Below, in pieces: positions 4,644-19,533 of a stretch of 20,787 nt of DNA. This DNA is from a virus (taxonomy: Duplodnaviria > Heunggongvirae > Uroviricota > Caudoviricetes). Both the position numbers and the translations under genes were made by a program. Where the stretch lies: the IMG/VR virus record IMGVR_UViG_2541047861_000013; one strand, given 5' to 3'. Within the stretch, counting starts at the first letter, position 1. The number at the start of each line of letters is the position of its first letter. Under the pieces are notes generated by a model, which saw nothing but the letters and a program-made list of their open reading frames with translations, did no database searches and was not told the DNA's origin.

Positions 4644-4940
4644 TCACTCCTGTTCACTGGCCTCTTTGGCCATCTTCAAATACTGTTCAGGGCAATGCGC
4701 CATAACGCGCTGAAACAGTTCCAGCGCCAGATTGCGTTGCCCCTCATTAAATGCCATTGCCATAGCGTCCATCGGTGAGATAGCGGAAAACACACGGCCT
4801 TTCTCCAGCACTGACCAGACAACGCGACGCCCCTGTTCACTGCTCATGACAAAGCGAATGTCATCAATTTCACGCTGTGCCATGTCACGTTGCTTACGGG
4901 CGTTTTCTTCTTTCAGTTGATCGTCTTCGTAATCTGTCAT
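4644..4940 (-). CDS. Hypothetical head-module protein (98 aa)
   Basis: ATG overlaps the portal stop (ATGA); charged, helical-looking sequence. Confidence 0.45.
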   Translation of the reverse strand: MTDYEDDQLKEENARKQRDMAQREIDDIRFVMSSEQGRRVVWSVLEKGRVFSAISPMDAMAMAFNEGQRNLALELFQRVMAHCPEQYLKMAKEASEQE

Positions 4941-6905: not shown

Positions 6906-6942
6906 TTGACATTTAACGCACGAATTATTACCTTTCAGGTAA
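6906..6942 (+). promoter_or_regulatory. Promoter-like TTGACA followed by a perfect TTACC-N5-GGTAA operator (6928-6942)
   Basis: TTGACA at 6906-6911; perfect 15-bp palindrome TTACCTTTCAGGTAA at 6928-6942. Which strand it serves (plus toward the tRNA, or minus toward the portal operon) is unresolved. Confidence 0.35.
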
Positions 6943-7264: not shown

Positions 7265-7341
7265 GTGGCATTAGCTCAGTTGGACAGAGCAACCGCCTTC
7301 TAAGCGGTTGGTCGCAGGTTCGAATCCTGCATGCCGCGCCA
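7265..7341 (+). tRNA. tRNA-Arg, anticodon UCU (argU-like), 3' CCA encoded
   Basis: Hand-folded cloverleaf: acceptor GTGGCAT/ATGCCGC (one G-U pair), D-stem GCTC/GAGC, anticodon stem ACCGC/GCGGT with loop CTTCTAA (anticodon TCT), T-stem GCAGG/CCTGC with TTCGAAT loop, discriminator G, CCA. Close to, but not identical with, my recollection of E. coli argU. Confidence 0.85.
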
Positions 7342-7384
7342 GAATCACGCCTAAGGACCGTGATGCCAGAAGTTCCAGGTGCTT

Positions 7385-7427
7385 GGCGGTGATGGTTTCC
7401 CTTGAAGGACTATCACCGCCCTTTTTA
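7385..7427 (+). terminator. Intrinsic terminator downstream of the tRNA
   Basis: GGCGGTGAT...ATCACCGCC stem followed by CTTTTTA. Confidence 0.5.
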
Positions 7428-7504
7428 CAGCAGGACGCCATTGCGATGACTTCATGCTGTAAACCCGTACAGCCACGGAAGGCATAACTCATTGCTTCCA
7501 GTTC

Positions 7505-7528
7505 GCCCGGTTCGCCGGGCATTTTTTT
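7505..7528 (+). terminator. Intrinsic terminator-like hairpin directly upstream of the moron ORF's ribosome-binding site
   Basis: GCCCGG-ttcg-CCGGGC followed by A-TTTTTTT, ending 11 nt before the ATG at 7540. Confidence 0.5.
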
Positions 7529-7539
7529 AAGGTGAGATC

Positions 7540-7962
7540 ATGAAAACAATTGATATGTTGGCTAAGTATCTAAATGAATGGCCATTAAAATATTCTCGTA
7601 TCGTTCAGGCTGAAGACTGCGTTTTTTATGGCGTTTTTGCTGGTAATGAAATGCATTACGAAGTAATTCAGAGTGAGGGACTGACCGGGTTAACTCTTAG
7701 CGAAGACCATGGTACTAGCGTTACGTTCCATGACTGGATAACAGCACAACGTTCTGAAATGGAAAAAGGCGATGTGTTTGATATTTCTCGCTCTGTTTGC
7801 GCTAAAGCAAAAAGTGATAATGATTACATGAGCGAACACTTATACAACATGAAGCTACAGTGCCTTGCCGAGGTGCTTGGTAAAAAAGCTATTGTCGATA
7901 AACAAGGCGCCATTAGCGAAGCAAAGGCAATAAATGCTGCATTTGATGAAATTATTTTCTAG
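7540..7962 (+). CDS. Hypothetical protein, 140 aa; AT-rich moron transcribed opposite to the late operon
   Basis: AAGGTG SD 5 nt before the ATG; a hand count of the first 120 nt gives roughly 35-40% GC, clearly below the flanking phage genes by eye; own downstream terminator; no transmembrane segment or recognisable catalytic motif. Confidence 0.6.
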   Translation: MKTIDMLAKYLNEWPLKYSRIVQAEDCVFYGVFAGNEMHYEVIQSEGLTGLTLSEDHGTSVTFHDWITAQRSEMEKGDVFDISRSVCAKAKSDNDYMSEHLYNMKLQCLAEVLGKKAIVDKQGAISEAKAINAAFDEIIF

Positions 7963-7965
7963 CTC

Positions 7966-7979
7966 TGTGACATGTCACA
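7966..7979. repeat. Perfect 14-bp palindrome TGTGACATGTCACA
   Basis: Read directly; sits between the moron stop (7962) and its terminator. A 13/14 copy lies at 10417-10430. Confidence 0.6.
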
Positions 7980-7982
7980 AAC

Positions 7983-8010
7983 AGCCAGCCTATGAGCTGG
8001 CTTTGTTTTA
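7983..8010 (+). terminator. Intrinsic terminator after the moron ORF
   Basis: AGCCAGC-ctatga-GCTGGCT followed by TTGTTTTA. Confidence 0.55.
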
Positions 8011-8052
8011 TCCTCACCAGAGGATATCAACGACATTATCCCCACCAGCGGA

Positions 8053-9528
8053 TTAAGCATAGGGATCGTAATCTGTGATGGCCTTGCCTTGCTGGTTCTG
8101 CTGACCGGGAATTCGCAGACGCTTCGACACAGGGAACGCAAACGTCAGCAGTAGCGCATCGCCTTTACCAGGAGAACGCCCAAGTCGCTCTTTGATATCT
8201 TCCTTCGGTTCGATAACGATTTTACCGTCCACTCGAACTTTGTACTCTGCTGCCGACAGGTCGTCCGCTGTTTCCTGGTCATCCAGCATGCCACCGAGCC
8301 TCAGCCATGTCTTGCATGAGTTGAACATCTCCCCACGCTTGTTGAGCATCTGCGGGTCAGTAGACGCGCCACCGAACGGAACAAGTTGCCATGTACGACC
8401 CCAGCCGTCACCGATTGACTTCAAACCGGTTCCGTAACCGAAGTCGATGAACACCGCGTCAGCCTGATACTGGTCTTCAAAGTCAGCGATACGCTTCGCC
8501 ATAATCAGATCGTCGGTAGTCTTGTTGCCAGTCCACAGCACCTTACTGTGTAGCCCCTGCCGCAGGTATATCACAGCGTCATCAACGCCGGAGTATGCCG
8601 GGTCAACGCCGATTATCACCGGAGCATGTGCAACCTGCGCAGCGGTTACCACCCGTTTCATTGCCTCGTCAGTAAGACCGGTAGGGATAAACTGCAATTC
8701 AGATGCATCAGGGAATATGCCACGCACACGGATTTTAACGAAGTCGCTGTCTTCCCCGTAGTCATCAACCCATTTCTGCAACTGCTGTTTGTTAGTGCCT
8801 TCCACCGTCCGGCTGTCAATCTGCGCAGTTTTCCAGCGGTGTTTATATTTGCGGAAACATTCGCGAAAACGCCCGGTGTTACGTGTAGGGTTTCCGAACG
8901 CCACCCAAATAATCTCAGTGTCTTCGTCCGTAAGCGCACCCTCGGCAACTTCCCACACCAGATCCGCAATGTTCGACGCTTCATCAAACACCACGATGAT
9001 GCGTTTGCGCTCGTTGTGTAGTCCGGCGAATGCCTCAGTGTTGTGCTCAGACCAGGGTATTGCGTCAGCCCGCCACCGCTTGTCGTGCCCAGGGTCATTG
9101 CTGTACATCGCGGTAGCGGTACAGGTAAACCAGTCTTTCGTGATAGCAAGGTTCGACCACTTGATAATTTCCGGCCAGGTCTTCGTTCGTAGCTGGTTGT
9201 CGGTGTTGGCGGTCACCACGACCTTACAATCCTCGCAAGTGGACATGCCCCAGTTGATGAGCATTGAGATGAATGCGGATTTACCAATACCGTGACCAGA
9301 AGCACGTGCCAGCATAAGCGGCTGATAACGCGTCTCTGGATTCTGCAGGTGATCACGTATCTCTCGGAACGCATCGGCCTGCCACTGACGTGGACCGGTA
9401 GCATGTGCCAGTTCAGTCCCCTCTTCCCCCCAAGGGAACGCATAGAGGGCATAGCCAAGCGGATCGTGAGTGAACCCTGCAATATCTTCGATTAACTGCT
9501 CTTCAGGAGATAACGCTGCATCTGTCAC
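8053..9528 (-). CDS. Terminase large subunit
   Basis: Walker A (ARASGHGIGKSAF) and Walker B-like IVVFDEA motifs; 491 aa; GTG start overlapping the small-subunit stop (GTGA). Confidence 0.85.
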   Translation of the reverse strand: MTDAALSPEEQLIEDIAGFTHDPLGYALYAFPWGEEGTELAHATGPRQWQADAFREIRDHLQNPETRYQPLMLARASGHGIGKSAFISMLINWGMSTCEDCKVVVTANTDNQLRTKTWPEIIKWSNLAITKDWFTCTATAMYSNDPGHDKRWRADAIPWSEHNTEAFAGLHNERKRIIVVFDEASNIADLVWEVAEGALTDEDTEIIWVAFGNPTRNTGRFRECFRKYKHRWKTAQIDSRTVEGTNKQQLQKWVDDYGEDSDFVKIRVRGIFPDASELQFIPTGLTDEAMKRVVTAAQVAHAPVIIGVDPAYSGVDDAVIYLRQGLHSKVLWTGNKTTDDLIMAKRIADFEDQYQADAVFIDFGYGTGLKSIGDGWGRTWQLVPFGGASTDPQMLNKRGEMFNSCKTWLRLGGMLDDQETADDLSAAEYKVRVDGKIVIEPKEDIKERLGRSPGKGDALLLTFAFPVSKRLRIPGQQNQQGKAITDYDPYA

Positions 9529-10118
9529 TGATTACCATCCTGACGTTCTTTGAGTCGCTTCCTGGCTGCCGCTATGCGATCAGCAATTGTCACATTCACA
9601 TTAACATCCAGTCGTTCTTTGAATGCGTTGACGTCGACGTGCTTACCAATCAGTTCGAGGTTCTTCACCTTGTCAGGCCATTTAATTTTTTTGAGGATTG
9701 TCTCTATCGAATCCTCGTTCATGTTCATGATGGTCGATGACAGATCAAAGCCGCTAAGCGTAGTGCGCCAGATTTTCGGCCACTCGCGGATTGGCTTAAG
9801 GCTCCCATCGTCGTTGAGGATATCAATCACGTCCATCTGGTCGATCTCCACCAGGCGCATGAGAACGTAATCAGCACTGACGCGCATTCGTTTGTTGCGC
9901 TCCTCCATCAACTCGGCAATCCGTTTCTGAATGCGTTCATCGCGCATCATGACACTGGCTTTAACTGCCGCTGTATTTGGGGAGAATCCTGCATTAATCG
10001 CAGCCTGAGTCTGGTTTTCAGGCGTTTTGATGTATGACTGGCAATAAGCCTCCTGCATTGCTGTTAGTGGCTTAAATTGCGTTGATTTGCGTTTATAGGC
10101 TTTAGGTTCAGCAGGCAT
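9525..10118 (-). CDS. Terminase small subunit (P27-like family)
   Basis: ...LTAMQEAYCQSYIKTPENQTQAAINAGFSPNTAAVKAS... matches the conserved small-terminase HTH region as I remember it. Start set at the ATG-ATG pair (10121/10118) preceded by GGTGG; the track's extended TTG start would read through the operator repeats. Confidence 0.75.
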   Translation of the reverse strand: MPAEPKAYKRKSTQFKPLTAMQEAYCQSYIKTPENQTQAAINAGFSPNTAAVKASVMMRDERIQKRIAELMEERNKRMRVSADYVLMRLVEIDQMDVIDILNDDGSLKPIREWPKIWRTTLSGFDLSSTIMNMNEDSIETILKKIKWPDKVKNLELIGKHVDVNAFKERLDVNVNVTIADRIAAARKRLKERQDGNQ

Positions 10119-10120
10119 CA

Positions 10121-10153
10121 TAACCACCGTGGTAATAGTTACCGTTGTGGTAA
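10121..10153 (-). promoter_or_regulatory. Tandem operator-like sites at the terminase small-subunit start
   Basis: TAACCACCGTGGTAA (10121-10135, one mismatch) and TTACCGTTGTGGTAA (10139-10153, perfect), 18 bp apart, just downstream of a minus-strand terminator. Confidence 0.45.
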
Positions 10154-10162
10154 TAGTAACAT

Positions 10163-10190
10163 GCAAAATAAAGCCGCCATAGTTGGCGGC
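10163..10190 (-). terminator. Intrinsic terminator separating the nin-like genes from the packaging operon
   Basis: GCCGCC-atagtt-GGCGGC followed on the minus strand by UUUAUUUUG. Confidence 0.45.
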
Positions 10191-10195
10191 AGTAT

Positions 10196-10408
10196 TCAAA
10201 GTCCATCAAATTCATCGTAAAAACTCTCGTCAAGATACCCTTCCCATTTACCGCGAATGAAAATTACATCCTCGCCGCAAGGGTGCTGACTGTCGATAAC
10301 TATATCCCTCCTGGCGCAACCATACTTATGCATGAGAAATTTAACCTCTTTCGGAAAATTTGCTGAGTTATCTCTCATATCTTCAAGGTCGTAGCGTATT
10401 TTTGGCAT
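10196..10408 (-). CDS. Hypothetical small protein (70 aa)
   Basis: ATG at 10408 (MPKIRYDLEDM...) preceded by GAAGGTG; the alternative GTG at 10429 lies inside the 12-bp palindrome. Confidence 0.4.
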   Translation of the reverse strand: MPKIRYDLEDMRDNSANFPKEVKFLMHKYGCARRDIVIDSQHPCGEDVIFIRGKWEGYLDESFYDEFDGL

Positions 10409-10417
10409 AACACCTTC

Positions 10418-10429
10418 GTGACATGTCAC
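10418..10429. repeat. 12-bp palindrome GTGACATGTCAC (second copy of the 7966-7979 core)
   Basis: Read directly; overlaps the stop codon of the 112-aa gene. Confidence 0.6.
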
Positions 10430-10764
10430 ACTATTAATTTCGTTTCATGCCAGCCTTTAGTCACCCAGCATTGTGAGTCACCATTACACGGACATGAATT
10501 AACTGGAACTCTCTCGCCGCACTTACCGCAACGTTTTCTACTGATCGATTTTATACGCCCGCGCACGCGTGCATCATCCTGGCGGATCAGTAACGCTATA
10601 TACTCACCAAATTCGTAAGGCGCACGCCCGGGGCGACGCGCGGCACAGTTACGCTCAAGCATTTCAATTTCCTGAGCATCAAGCACAATCTCCAGCTTAC
10701 GTACACCGGATGCAGCTTGTCTGGCTCTCTGAGCGGCTTTGCGCTCTGCTGCTGATTTAGCCAT
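10426..10764 (-). CDS. Hypothetical protein with C-terminal Cys-cluster (zinc-ribbon-like), 112 aa
   Basis: Ala/Arg-rich N-terminus; C-terminal CGKCG...CPC...C; ATG at 10764 with AAAGGTGA SD 6 nt upstream. Confidence 0.45.
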   Translation of the reverse strand: MAKSAAERKAAQRARQAASGVRKLEIVLDAQEIEMLERNCAARRPGRAPYEFGEYIALLIRQDDARVRGRIKSISRKRCGKCGERVPVNSCPCNGDSQCWVTKGWHETKLIV

Positions 10765-11038
10765 CAATATTCACCTTTATCGCGTAAACCTTTACCGGTT
10801 TATCGCCGAAGTGCGGATGTGTGATTGTCTTGATTTCATATCCGTCATACGGGACGTCAATTCTGCGGCTGGAATCGTCGCGCTTCGGATATCCCTTTGT
10901 GATAATCAGGCGGTCATGCTTACGGTTAACGAGGCGCTTTTTCCAGTAGTCATTAACAAGGCGATACTCTTCCGTTTTCTCTCCGCGAATCATGGCATCG
11001 AAGTATTCACCTTTAACGGCAAGTTGCAAGTTAGCCAC
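10757..11038 (-). CDS. Hypothetical protein, possibly ASCH/DUF3850-like (93 aa, GTG start)
   Basis: GTG at 11038 is preceded by a perfect AGGAGG SD at 6-nt spacing; KGEYFDAMIRGEKTEEYR resembles ASCH-type domains from memory. Confidence 0.4.
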   Translation of the reverse strand: MANLQLAVKGEYFDAMIRGEKTEEYRLVNDYWKKRLVNRKHDRLIITKGYPKRDDSSRRIDVPYDGYEIKTITHPHFGDKPVKVYAIKVNIDG

Positions 11039-11723
11039 GGTTAACCTCCTGCTTCGGTGCTGCTGGCATTTCACGCCAGTGCGTAACTGAGTGCGGATCC
11101 GGATATTCGGTGCCATCATCCCAGCGATTACCATTCCACATTGCAGACCACATCTCACCGTCTTCATACATGACCATTACCGGAATTAACTTATCCGGCA
11201 TTCGCTCACTACAGCTTATCCAACCATCCGGAGTTACCGGATAGTTGCCAGCCTGAACAGTAGGCATATCAGGACCTTTGCGAATCGCCCTGGCAAGATC
11301 GATTGGGTCGTCGTACAACCAGTCACCTGTTTGCGGATGATTGGCTTCTGCCAATTGTGCAGCCCACTCCAGGCCGTCTTTGTGTCCTTGCAGATAGTCC
11401 AGCGGTAACTCATCACTATTACTTACAGGTTCGGCTTCCAGCTCAACGCGCAGCTTCCCTACCGTTAGCGCAATATCCTCGTTCTCCTGGTCGCGGGATT
11501 TGATGTATTGCTGGTTTCTTTCCCGTTCATCCAGCAGCGCCAGCACGGTTTCTGGTCCGGTCAGAAATTTGAAGGCGTTGAGCGCATCAATATCCACACC
11601 GTAATCCTTAAGTTCCTGTTCACTTAACAAATCATCATCAACTGGCAACATTAACAGGCGTTCCATTGCTGGAATTGCACGTTCCGCCACCTCACGCAGT
11701 GCCTGGTAATTAATTTCGCTCAC
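11031..11723 (-). CDS. Ead/Ea22-like N-terminus fused to a DUF551-like C-terminus (230 aa)
   Basis: Starts MSEINYQALREVAERA (typical Ea22-like opening); C-terminal WISCSERMP...THWREMP resembles DUF551; GTG start with AAGGAGG SD. Confidence 0.5.
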   Translation of the reverse strand: MSEINYQALREVAERAIPAMERLLMLPVDDDLLSEQELKDYGVDIDALNAFKFLTGPETVLALLDERERNQQYIKSRDQENEDIALTVGKLRVELEAEPVSNSDELPLDYLQGHKDGLEWAAQLAEANHPQTGDWLYDDPIDLARAIRKGPDMPTVQAGNYPVTPDGWISCSERMPDKLIPVMVMYEDGEMWSAMWNGNRWDDGTEYPDPHSVTHWREMPAAPKQEVNRG

Positions 11724-14602: not shown

Positions 14603-14663
14603 ATTTTGTGCTGACACAAAAAAAAGATCAACCAGATTTGGTTTTTTATTACCTTTGAGGTAC
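14603..14663 (-). promoter_or_regulatory. Promoter with upstream operator-like site between cro and the replication genes
   Basis: Minus-strand -35 TTGATC (plus 14626-14631), 17-bp spacer, -10 CAAAAT (14603-14608); TTACCTTTGAGGTAC (14649-14663, one mismatch) 18 bp upstream of the -35. Confidence 0.35.
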
Positions 14664-19342: not shown

Positions 19343-19533
19343 ACAGGGCATCACCAGCAGATTTAAGAAAATGCCTTGAAACTGCAAACATGCTTGCACA
19401 CAGCGGGATCAGGTTTGTTCCAATTCCCGCTGTCACTGATGCTGAATTTGCAACACTGTCAGCAATATTCGAAAACAAAATTGAATCACTGGCAGCAGAA
19501 GCAGAGATGGAAGAAAATCAGCAGAACTATTAA
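19339..19533 (+). CDS. Hypothetical protein (64 aa)
   Basis: ATG at 19339 overlaps the methyltransferase stop (ATGA); converges on the integrase 3' end with a 3-bp gap. Confidence 0.45.
   Translation: MNRASPADLRKCLETANMLAHSGIRFVPIPAVTDAEFATLSAIFENKIESLAAEAEMEENQQNY

Follow-up and report, generated by a model that had tools for sequence, protein, structure and literature searches.

Small dimeric proteins of the ribbon-helix-helix (RHH) fold, among them P22 Arc and Mnt, CopG, MetJ, ParG, TraM and antitoxins, recognize short symmetric DNA sites, and their genes lie beside their own sites. MatP, a protein of the bacterial host, normally reads the 13-bp sequence matS (GTGACRNYGTCAC) in the chromosome terminus; the matS consensus is GTGAC[AG]N[TC]GTCAC (PMC3603311), and GTGACAGTGTCAC is a laboratory version (PMC7394560). 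A set of 500 Escherichia and Salmonella prophages contains no true matS motif, which is apparently counter-selected there (PMC3603311). Here we describe a 12-bp palindrome, GTGACATGTCAC, which is found twice in IMG/VR virus record IMGVR_UViG_2541047861_000013, a 20,787-nucleotide stretch of DNA (hereafter, the window) that is an epsilon15/phiV10-like (Uetakevirus) prophage. One copy includes the stop codon of an open reading frame (ORF) for a Cys-rich protein of 112 amino acids (aa). A comparison of phages showed that the site travels with, and is physically linked to, the family of this 112-aa protein. We favor, with moderate confidence, the explanation that the palindromes are two of three cognate DNA sites of the prophage's own 112-aa protein and probably mark the boundaries of transcription units. 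The site-protein pair appears to be undescribed so far.

The 112-aa protein shares its predicted fold with the RHH proteins listed above. The operators of those proteins overlap promoters, whereas the sites described here lie at 3' ends or inside genes and have no conserved promoter geometry, and the Cys-rich C-terminal domain and N-terminal basic helix of the phage family are not part of known RHH families. The genome position of the gene, as the last early gene before a terminator and the late genes, is that of the late-control proteins lambda Q (qut) and P2 Ogr (TGT-N12-ACA), with which the 112-aa protein also shares its small size, a putative zinc-binding motif and a DNA site beside the gene. 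Unlike the Q system, there is no promoter between gene and terminator for Q-type loading, and unlike Ogr sites, the palindromes have another geometry and no fixed distance to late promoters. Furthermore, N15 and ZF40 carry the family gene besides a Q-like antiterminator gene, and the late operons of this prophage, unlike those of late-control systems, appear to have their own repressor-controlled promoters.

Two other systems resemble this locus in layout. LacI, as Abo and colleagues reportedly found in 2000, binds at the 3' end of its own gene and acts as a roadblock, giving a truncated SsrA-tagged product. Here, too, a putative regulator site overlaps the end of the regulator's own coding sequence, and by analogy a polymerase stopped before the stop codon might provide negative feedback; the likeness to LacI is an analogy of layout only. 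Lambdoid phages are said (in work attributed to Juhala and colleagues in 2000 and Clark and colleagues in 2001) to carry morons and 'boundary sequences', that is, terminator-bearing accessory genes between operons and short conserved sequences at the junctions of exchanged segments, and both features have counterparts here. Unlike those boundary sequences, the element in this prophage is one specific dyad, which is linked to a single protein family and recurs in phage groups that are not related.

Co-occurrence of the palindrome with the 112-aa protein family

Homologues of the 112-aa protein include epsilon15 gp49, N15 gp46, ZF40 gp22 and the products of genes of P2-like Yersinia phages and Vibrio phages. 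We counted the motif GTGAC-N2-GTCAC in the whole genomes of six phages with a family member and found 3 sites each in N15, PAS61, epsilon15, ZF40 and K233 and 1 in YenM42.18. These 16 sites compare with 0.23 expected (Poisson P about 2e-24), and other spacers of 0-6 bp were absent from the same genomes, save one 13-mer in K233. Lambda, P22, HK97 and P2 have neither a family member nor an N2 site; the two GTGAC-N1-GTCAC sequences of lambda were dismissed as coding sequence reading Val-Thr-Val-Thr. The hosts of the motif-bearing phages are Escherichia, Salmonella, Klebsiella, Yersinia, Pectobacterium and Vibrio.

We also examined loci that had been chosen by protein, blind to the motif. A profile search of 1.84 billion protein representatives gave only 185 clusters at E ≤ 0.001. 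Seven full-length representatives, whose identity to the window protein was 27-45%, were chosen from these, and their contigs were retrieved by exact protein identity. Their flanks contained 8 sites versus 0.07 expected (P about 2e-14), every one with a 2-bp spacer, and several of the sites were in or beside the gene, at -38, -124 and +138 from the gene end and just upstream of the start. One family member lies in a Mu-like prophage directly upstream of gemA (locus L480, 10001-10387), with a site 38 nt ahead of its own stop codon. A scan of bacterial genomes (596 Gb) with the 14-mer form of the site, in which matches were mostly due to chance and came from every phylum, served only as a negative control: a family member was present within the examined 8-kb locus for only 3 of the 120 matches listed, all three in Enterobacterales.

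The attachment of the site to the gene takes more than one form. GTGAC(TG/GG)GTCAC overlaps the gp46 stop codon in 43 of 43 N15-clade loci, of which 37 have a second site, in repA, and many a third. In L019, L073 and ZF40 the site instead follows a TAA or TAG stop codon by a few bases; it follows different stop codons and is therefore not a by-product of coding. Altogether, the pair of family and site occurs in many temperate phages of enterobacteria and vibrios, among them epsilon15-like, N15-like, ZF40-like, P2-like, Mu-like and vibrio phages. A reading made earlier from the sequence alone had proposed that the palindrome might bind a phage regulator, and the comparison across these very different phages favors that proposal, since the motif co-occurs with the 112-aa gene and is attached to it. 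In the PHROG database the family (phrog_536) is labeled 'transcriptional regulator', its function being otherwise unassigned there.

Within the window, the palindrome is exact at both positions (Table 1), and exact matches in 100 dinucleotide-preserving shuffles averaged 0, which bears out the same reading's view that the two copies did not arise by chance. When up to two mismatches were allowed there was no enrichment (3 found versus 1.0 expected), so that only exact sites count. Copy 1 lies 4 nt past the stop codon of the 140-aa gene and 4 nt ahead of the terminator stem; the TGA that stops the 112-aa ORF (minus strand, 10428-10426) falls within copy 2, whose end is 9 nt ahead of the ATG of the 70-aa ORF. 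The prophage of E. coli MS20659, identical over a 161-base query, has exactly three exact copies in the 40 kb examined, which span nearly the whole prophage. Its third copy, outside the window and 17 kb away, follows the stop codon of the last structural-operon gene, with a terminator and a convergent accessory gene right next to it. Each of the three copies is thus at the 3' end of a transcription unit and adjoins an intrinsic terminator. The sequence-only reading had pointed out that the two copies bracket the terminase genes; a meaning of this bracketing is not supported, and it results from the sites marking where successive transcription units end. The one-mismatch sequence GTGCCATGTCAC of the window is also found in PAS61 (18193) and is absent from epsilon15; in the P2-like loci L029, L057, L088 and L109 this variant lies 21 nt from a perfect site.

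To follow the copies among close relatives, we used 79 loci, each covering 10 kb on either side of the 112-aa gene, in which the palindrome occurs only at the positions of copies 1 and 2. Of the 79 relatives, 75 have an exact copy 2 on the stop codon; an exact copy 1 is present in about 50 of 78, and there are single-base variants in others. Natural half-site variants, GTGAAATGTCAC and GTGACATGTTAC, occur in L145 and L178. The three copies of PAS61 occupy matching places in the genome architecture (the counterpart of copy 1 is at 14608). Epsilon15, with about 81% DNA identity over the terminase region, also has three sites, at the gp49 end, after the TerL terminator (2142) and at the gp18 end; the terminator stems beside them differ from those of the window phage, while the 12-mer is unchanged.

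The sites of different clades share invariant GTGAC half-sites, while the two central bases vary, being AT in one clade, TG/CA or GG/CC in another, and CG, AC or CC elsewhere. The center varies even within single genomes (AG and TG; AT and TT), and sites with an asymmetric center occur in both orientations relative to local transcription in N15 and K233. Invariant halves, a variable center and both orientations are the signature of a symmetric DNA-binding dimer, and these features fit a protein that would contact the outer five bp on each side rather than an RNA element. The 12-bp dyad is likewise consistent with the operator of a dimeric RHH protein. For the contexts of the site, though not for its conservation, we used 120 IMG/VR loci picked with the 14-mer, a selection-biased set. 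Sites cluster at the 3' ends of genes and operons, often 0-45 nt from an intrinsic terminator; a terminator was found within 30 nt in 9% of non-redundant contexts versus 1.5% of control positions with a crude finder.

Other N2 sites are inside genes, namely N15 repA, ZF40 gp08 and the cII-like gene gp12 of ZF40. The 14-mer within coding sequence reads Cys-Asp-Met-Ser-Gln/His and is found in small proteins of one family that the early left operon encodes (ZF40 gp08, a 107-aa ORF of BUCT709, a 144-aa ORF of L047), as well as near the C-terminus of cII-like proteins; its positions are 5125 and 7622 in ZF40 (L207) and 11212 in BUCT709 (L211). In ZF40-type phages, two sites about 2.2-2.5 kb apart flank the cI-cro-cII immunity region. 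In Vibrio phage K233 (L209), one 12-bp site is 31 nt upstream of TerS. BUCT709 (OM816835.1, 'Stenotrophomonas phage BUCT709') has one exact palindrome in its portal gene, and part of its sequence is 88% identical to IMG/VR locus L023.

The predicted protein and its comparison with MatP and matS

The structure of the 112-aa protein was predicted by AlphaFold from 60 diverse family members (pLDDT 93.9), which superseded an AF2 model from a shallow alignment (pLDDT 65.7). In the model, a basic helix at the N-terminus (residues 6-20) is followed by an extended stretch and by two further helices (31-43 and 53-76), beyond which the C-terminal part is rich in Cys; there, Cys80 and Cys83 are invariant and Cys100 is nearly so. 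The predicted structure has the strand-helix-helix order of the RHH fold, and the protein may therefore be described, from the model, as a basic helix followed by an RHH domain and a Cys-rich, zinc-ribbon-like tail. Pfam, including its RHH models, assigned no family to any of the 60 members, and the only NCBIfam match, to YbfE, was below threshold (E 0.046). A sequence search of the PDB gave no match and Foldseek against the PDB no significant one. We found no paper on the family, and a search for gene 46 in the literature on N15 and phiKO2 was without result. PGAP names the gene 'hypothetical' in the one complete E. coli genome examined. The gene is typically the last, or among the last, of the early operon.

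The half-sites of the palindrome are identical to those of matS, and removal of the central G from the laboratory matS yields the phage site. As far as is known, the host taxa named above have MatP. In addition, BUCT709 has sites and no family gene, and the one 13-mer of K233, GTGACACCGTCAC at 19491, which is present besides three 12-bp sites, fits the matS consensus. The palindromes might then be matS-like sites read by host MatP, through which phage DNA would be positioned or condensed or MukBEF excluded, but we regard this as unlikely. Both window sites and 24 of the 25 sites counted have two central bases and not three, for a spacing of 12 bp versus the 13 bp of matS, and with one bp more or less the half-sites are turned by about 36 degrees relative to each other. 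The prophage lies beside guaA, which on the K-12 map is outside the Ter macrodomain to which matS is confined. A host reader also gives no reason for the attachment of the site to the 112-aa gene in unrelated phages, and true matS is the very motif that the 500 Escherichia and Salmonella prophages lack (PMC3603311).

Nor does the 112-aa protein belong to the MatP family. The Pfam families MatP (PF06303) and MatP_C (PF17414) both match E. coli MatP, and neither matches the window protein or four homologues at E up to 10. Alignment to MatP with hhalign gave probabilities of 0.14-0.42%, which are not significant, and the aligned stretch was the topologically equivalent RHH helix pair; the MatP homologues collected for a profile were all at least 97% identical to E. 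coli MatP but for one 69% match (P0269), and gave no useful profile. MatP has an N-terminal four-helix-bundle domain and a coiled coil, whereas the phage protein lacks the bundle and has a Cys-rich tail in place of the coiled coil, and matS sites lie tens of kb apart in the terminus whereas the phage sites are kilobases apart in the phage. The likeness to matS is one of site and fold class, not of membership. We see a slim chance that temperate phages of MatP-containing bacteria carry a miniature system of the MatP/matS kind, which would act on DNA organization, or on the interplay with MukBEF or the divisome, in lytic growth and not on transcription. The protein of such a system, at the same slim chance, would be a reduced relative, or a structural analogue, of the DNA-binding core of MatP (a basic helix and an RHH domain) to which a zinc ribbon is joined, and each genome would carry two to four sites of the type 'matS minus one base pair'. 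If so, the shifted spacing would hide the sites from host MatP, or the protein would compete at real matS.

Other readings of the palindrome

The palindromes could be sites of recombination or module exchange, where phages would trade accessory genes and modules with one another. The sequence-only reading had raised this possibility together with a check on module breakpoints, and the breakpoints do fall at the sites: among 79 relatives, 42-43 lose their homology to the window precisely at 7967, and 45 do so at 10416. Both sites border variable slots, with different morons or none at one and a small ORF present or absent at the other, and the sequences that come after gene and palindrome are unrelated from one phage to another. 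L145 and L179 have an empty slot next to copy 1, and many relatives, including PAS61 and TL-2011b, have 13 bp in place of window 10217-10415, which contains the small ORF. The palindrome stands beside one cargo gene in 31 of 31 loci and beside the other, the 70-aa ORF, in 58 of 61, where it is 8-9 nt upstream. However, a conserved site beside a slot with turnover of accessory genes yields the same pattern of breakpoints, and a selected site that adjoins such a slot thus produces it without being a recombination substrate. The palindrome is at one edge of each slot only, the other edges (7528-7545 and 10216) having none, and no recombinase gene is linked to the sites in Uetakeviruses. The TerS-TerL block between the sites was never inverted or replaced in the 79 relatives. 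Cargo genes were found only in Uetakevirus-sized contigs, which looks like ordinary homologous recombination in conserved flanks. The motif also lies inside conserved genes of N15 and ZF40, and its invariant half-sites with a free center are those expected for a dimeric binding protein. For these reasons the palindrome does not behave as a site-specific recombination or cassette site, and we give the exchange reading little credence. Relatives without the 70-aa ORF keep a mini-ORF encoding MHDEFDVF (L125, 10339-10400), and the empty slot of L145 and L179 has one encoding MKYEFDGF on the other strand (L145, 12560-12640). GAATTYGATGGNTTTTGA is common to both mini-ORFs and the terminal part of the 70-aa ORF (YDEFDGL, window 10196-10220), and the two junctions therefore carry similar short remnants.

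A role in RNA or at promoters was also considered. As RNA, both strands of the palindrome yield the same small hairpin (a 5-bp stem with a CAUG loop), which could be a nut-like loading site for antitermination or a translational operator, possibly bound by the zinc ribbon; many copies precede an intrinsic terminator by 0-45 nt along the transcript, and many are 8-15 nt upstream of a start codon (the small ORF of the window, N15 gene 47, L073, L014 and K233 TerS). This is improbable in our view. The hairpin is weak (-2.8 kcal/mol, z -0.85) and no better than those of shuffles, its stem bases are invariant rather than compensating, with no covariation, asymmetric centers occur in both orientations relative to the local transcript (N15, K233), and copy 1 comes after, not before, its terminator in the late direction. 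At the DNA level, GTGACA matches the TTGACA of a -35 element at 5 of 6 positions, on both strands, and the best promoter-like match of the region uses the palindrome (GTGACA-16-AATAAT, minus strand, 10/12); alternatively, the palindrome might be a site for a CRP-like activator of late promoters. Either role is highly improbable. The region has 4 promoter-like sites versus 4.2 expected from shuffles, the -10 of the best match sits in variable cargo, and the late promoters and operators are about 85 to >1000 nt from the palindrome. No -10 hexamer is conserved at 16-18 nt among the copies, as would befit a sigma-70 -35 element: one was found on 14 of 172 sides versus 3-16 in shifted registers (86 non-redundant contexts). 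The TGTGA and TCACA arms are 4 bp apart (CATG) and not 6, as in the CRP-binding site TGTGA-N6-TCACA; the sequence-only reading was therefore correct that this is not a CRP site. The operator of the prophage repressor (ATTACC-N4-5-GGTAAT, AY150271.2) is a different palindrome. A pac or cos site was set aside, as there are three copies, the motif in the cos phage N15 lies far from cos, and the literature searched on the epsilon15 group contained no packaging statement. Literature searches for the motif and its variants returned unrelated primer sequences only.

Organization of the locus and a possible boundary function

The features of the region are collected in Table 1. Window 7400-11200 is 94-99% identical to phages PAS61, HEMP4, phiV10 and TL-2011b, and about 5% of complete E. 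coli genomes carry a prophage of this type. The prophage of MS20659 is integrated beside guaA, as is phage ZX5 (PMC9782041). In the window, the late genes are on the minus strand, where the order in the late direction is replication/nin-like genes, 112-aa ORF, 70-aa ORF, terminator, TerS and TerL. Beyond TerL come the bidirectional terminator, a convergent plus-strand unit (tRNA-Arg and the 140-aa gene) and the portal operon. Genes for a CI-like repressor, RecT, an exonuclease, a methyltransferase and an integrase occupy the upper part of the window, together with a cro-like gene.

Table 1. Positions of the palindrome copies and of neighboring features in the window
Feature	Position	Strand	Remarks
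Palindrome copy 1	7967..7978		GTGACATGTCAC; perfect 14-mer TGTGACATGTCACA at 7966-7979; between moron stop and bidirectional terminator
Palindrome copy 2	10418..10429		GTGACATGTCAC; 14-mer version CGTGACATGTCACA at 10417-10430, 13/14 match
One-mismatch copy GTGCCATGTCAC	4877..4888		Inside gp5-like ORF; status uncertain
112-aa protein gene	10426..10764	-	Last gene of early-right operon; candidate palindrome binder
70-aa accessory ORF (phrog_1541)	10196..10408	-	Between copy 2 and terminator; variably present in relatives
Intrinsic terminator closing early-right operon	10173..10190	-	GCCGCCAACTATGGCGGC then TTTATTTT; upstream of true TerS start
TerS-TerL operon	8053..10121	-	TerS 9525 to about 10121, TerL 8053-9528; between copies 1 and 2
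Bidirectional intrinsic terminator	7983..8002		Between TerL (minus) and convergent moron (plus); annotated terminator in phiV10
140-aa accessory gene (moron, phrog_4846)	7540..7962	+	Variable slot; convergent on late operon
Two CI-type operators TTACC-N5-GGTAA before TerS	10121..10153		By analogy with 'repressor' sites in epsilon15 record AY150271.2

TerS matches Pfam Terminase_2, and the terminase subunits are annotated in PAS61, phiV10 and TL-2011b. The epsilon15 record annotates a stem-loop at 39646-39672 that is the counterpart of the terminator closing the early-right operon. A long version of the TerS ORF (TTG 10199) contains this terminator plus two operators; the real start is probably ATG 10121 or 10118, as in the TL-2011b annotation. 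TTACC-N5-GGTAA is present at ten window positions (15808, 15746, 15034, 14986, 14649, 12710, 12648, 10139, 10121 and 6928), around the repressor and cro genes, and immediately ahead of TerS and, at 6928, of the portal operon. In these phages it overlaps promoters that belong to the late operons themselves, and its copies upstream of TerS and the portal operon suggest direct control of the late operons by the repressor. Between the TerL stop codon and the terminator (8006-8052) there is a second inverted repeat (..GGGGATAATGTCGTTGATATCCTC..GAGGATA..), kept in nearly all close relatives. The tRNA-Arg(UCU) gene is at 7265-7341 (plus strand), and an 83-aa minus-strand ORF at 7271-7522 (phiV10 p04, phrog_4647) is antisense to it. 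This ORF ends in GFEPATNRLEGGCSVQLS, a peptide typical of a translated tRNA, and is therefore probably not a gene.

From the co-occurrence described above, we infer that the palindrome is bound by the 112-aa protein. In the mechanism that we propose, a dimer of the RHH domain, with help from the basic helix that precedes this domain, would recognize the two GTGAC half-sites irrespective of the two central bases. Its sites would then be those at the 3' ends of three successive rightward units: the early-right operon, where the site is in the stop codon of the protein's own gene, the TerS-TerL operon, and the structural operon. As the sites are at operon 3' ends beside terminators and not at promoters, action as a boundary element is the most likely, with accumulated protein occupying the operon ends. 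The bound protein may limit or modulate the passage of RNA polymerase, and thereby early read-through into the late genes and collision with convergent accessory genes, and at its own stop codon it may modulate its own expression. The layout points to the boundary function; the direction of the effect, whether a block or help for read-through, is a guess.

Several observations weigh against this proposal. The pairing of protein and site rests on their co-occurrence, and BUCT709 is an exception, having two exact sites with no detectable family member. Conversely, 3 of the 7 protein-chosen loci lack an exact site; two of these three are <4 kb, and one of the two has a one-mismatch site on the stop codon. 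The boundary or roadblock role is hypothetical, and some sites of N15 and ZF40 are well inside genes. The association with terminators is real but partial, and may be incidental, operon ends being the only non-coding space. Finally, point mutations in copy 1 are about as frequent among close relatives as those in the adjoining terminator, a range at which purifying selection is unmeasurable.

If the 112-aa protein does pair with the palindrome, a gene now annotated 'hypothetical' would gain a name and a testable function. The pairing would also explain why the 12-mer bounds accessory-gene slots, with no need for a special recombination mechanism. The prophage would then have a regulator that works at the ends of operons instead of at promoters, and the question would arise why its site copies the half-sites of matS, a chromosome-organizing sequence of the host that prophages otherwise avoid.

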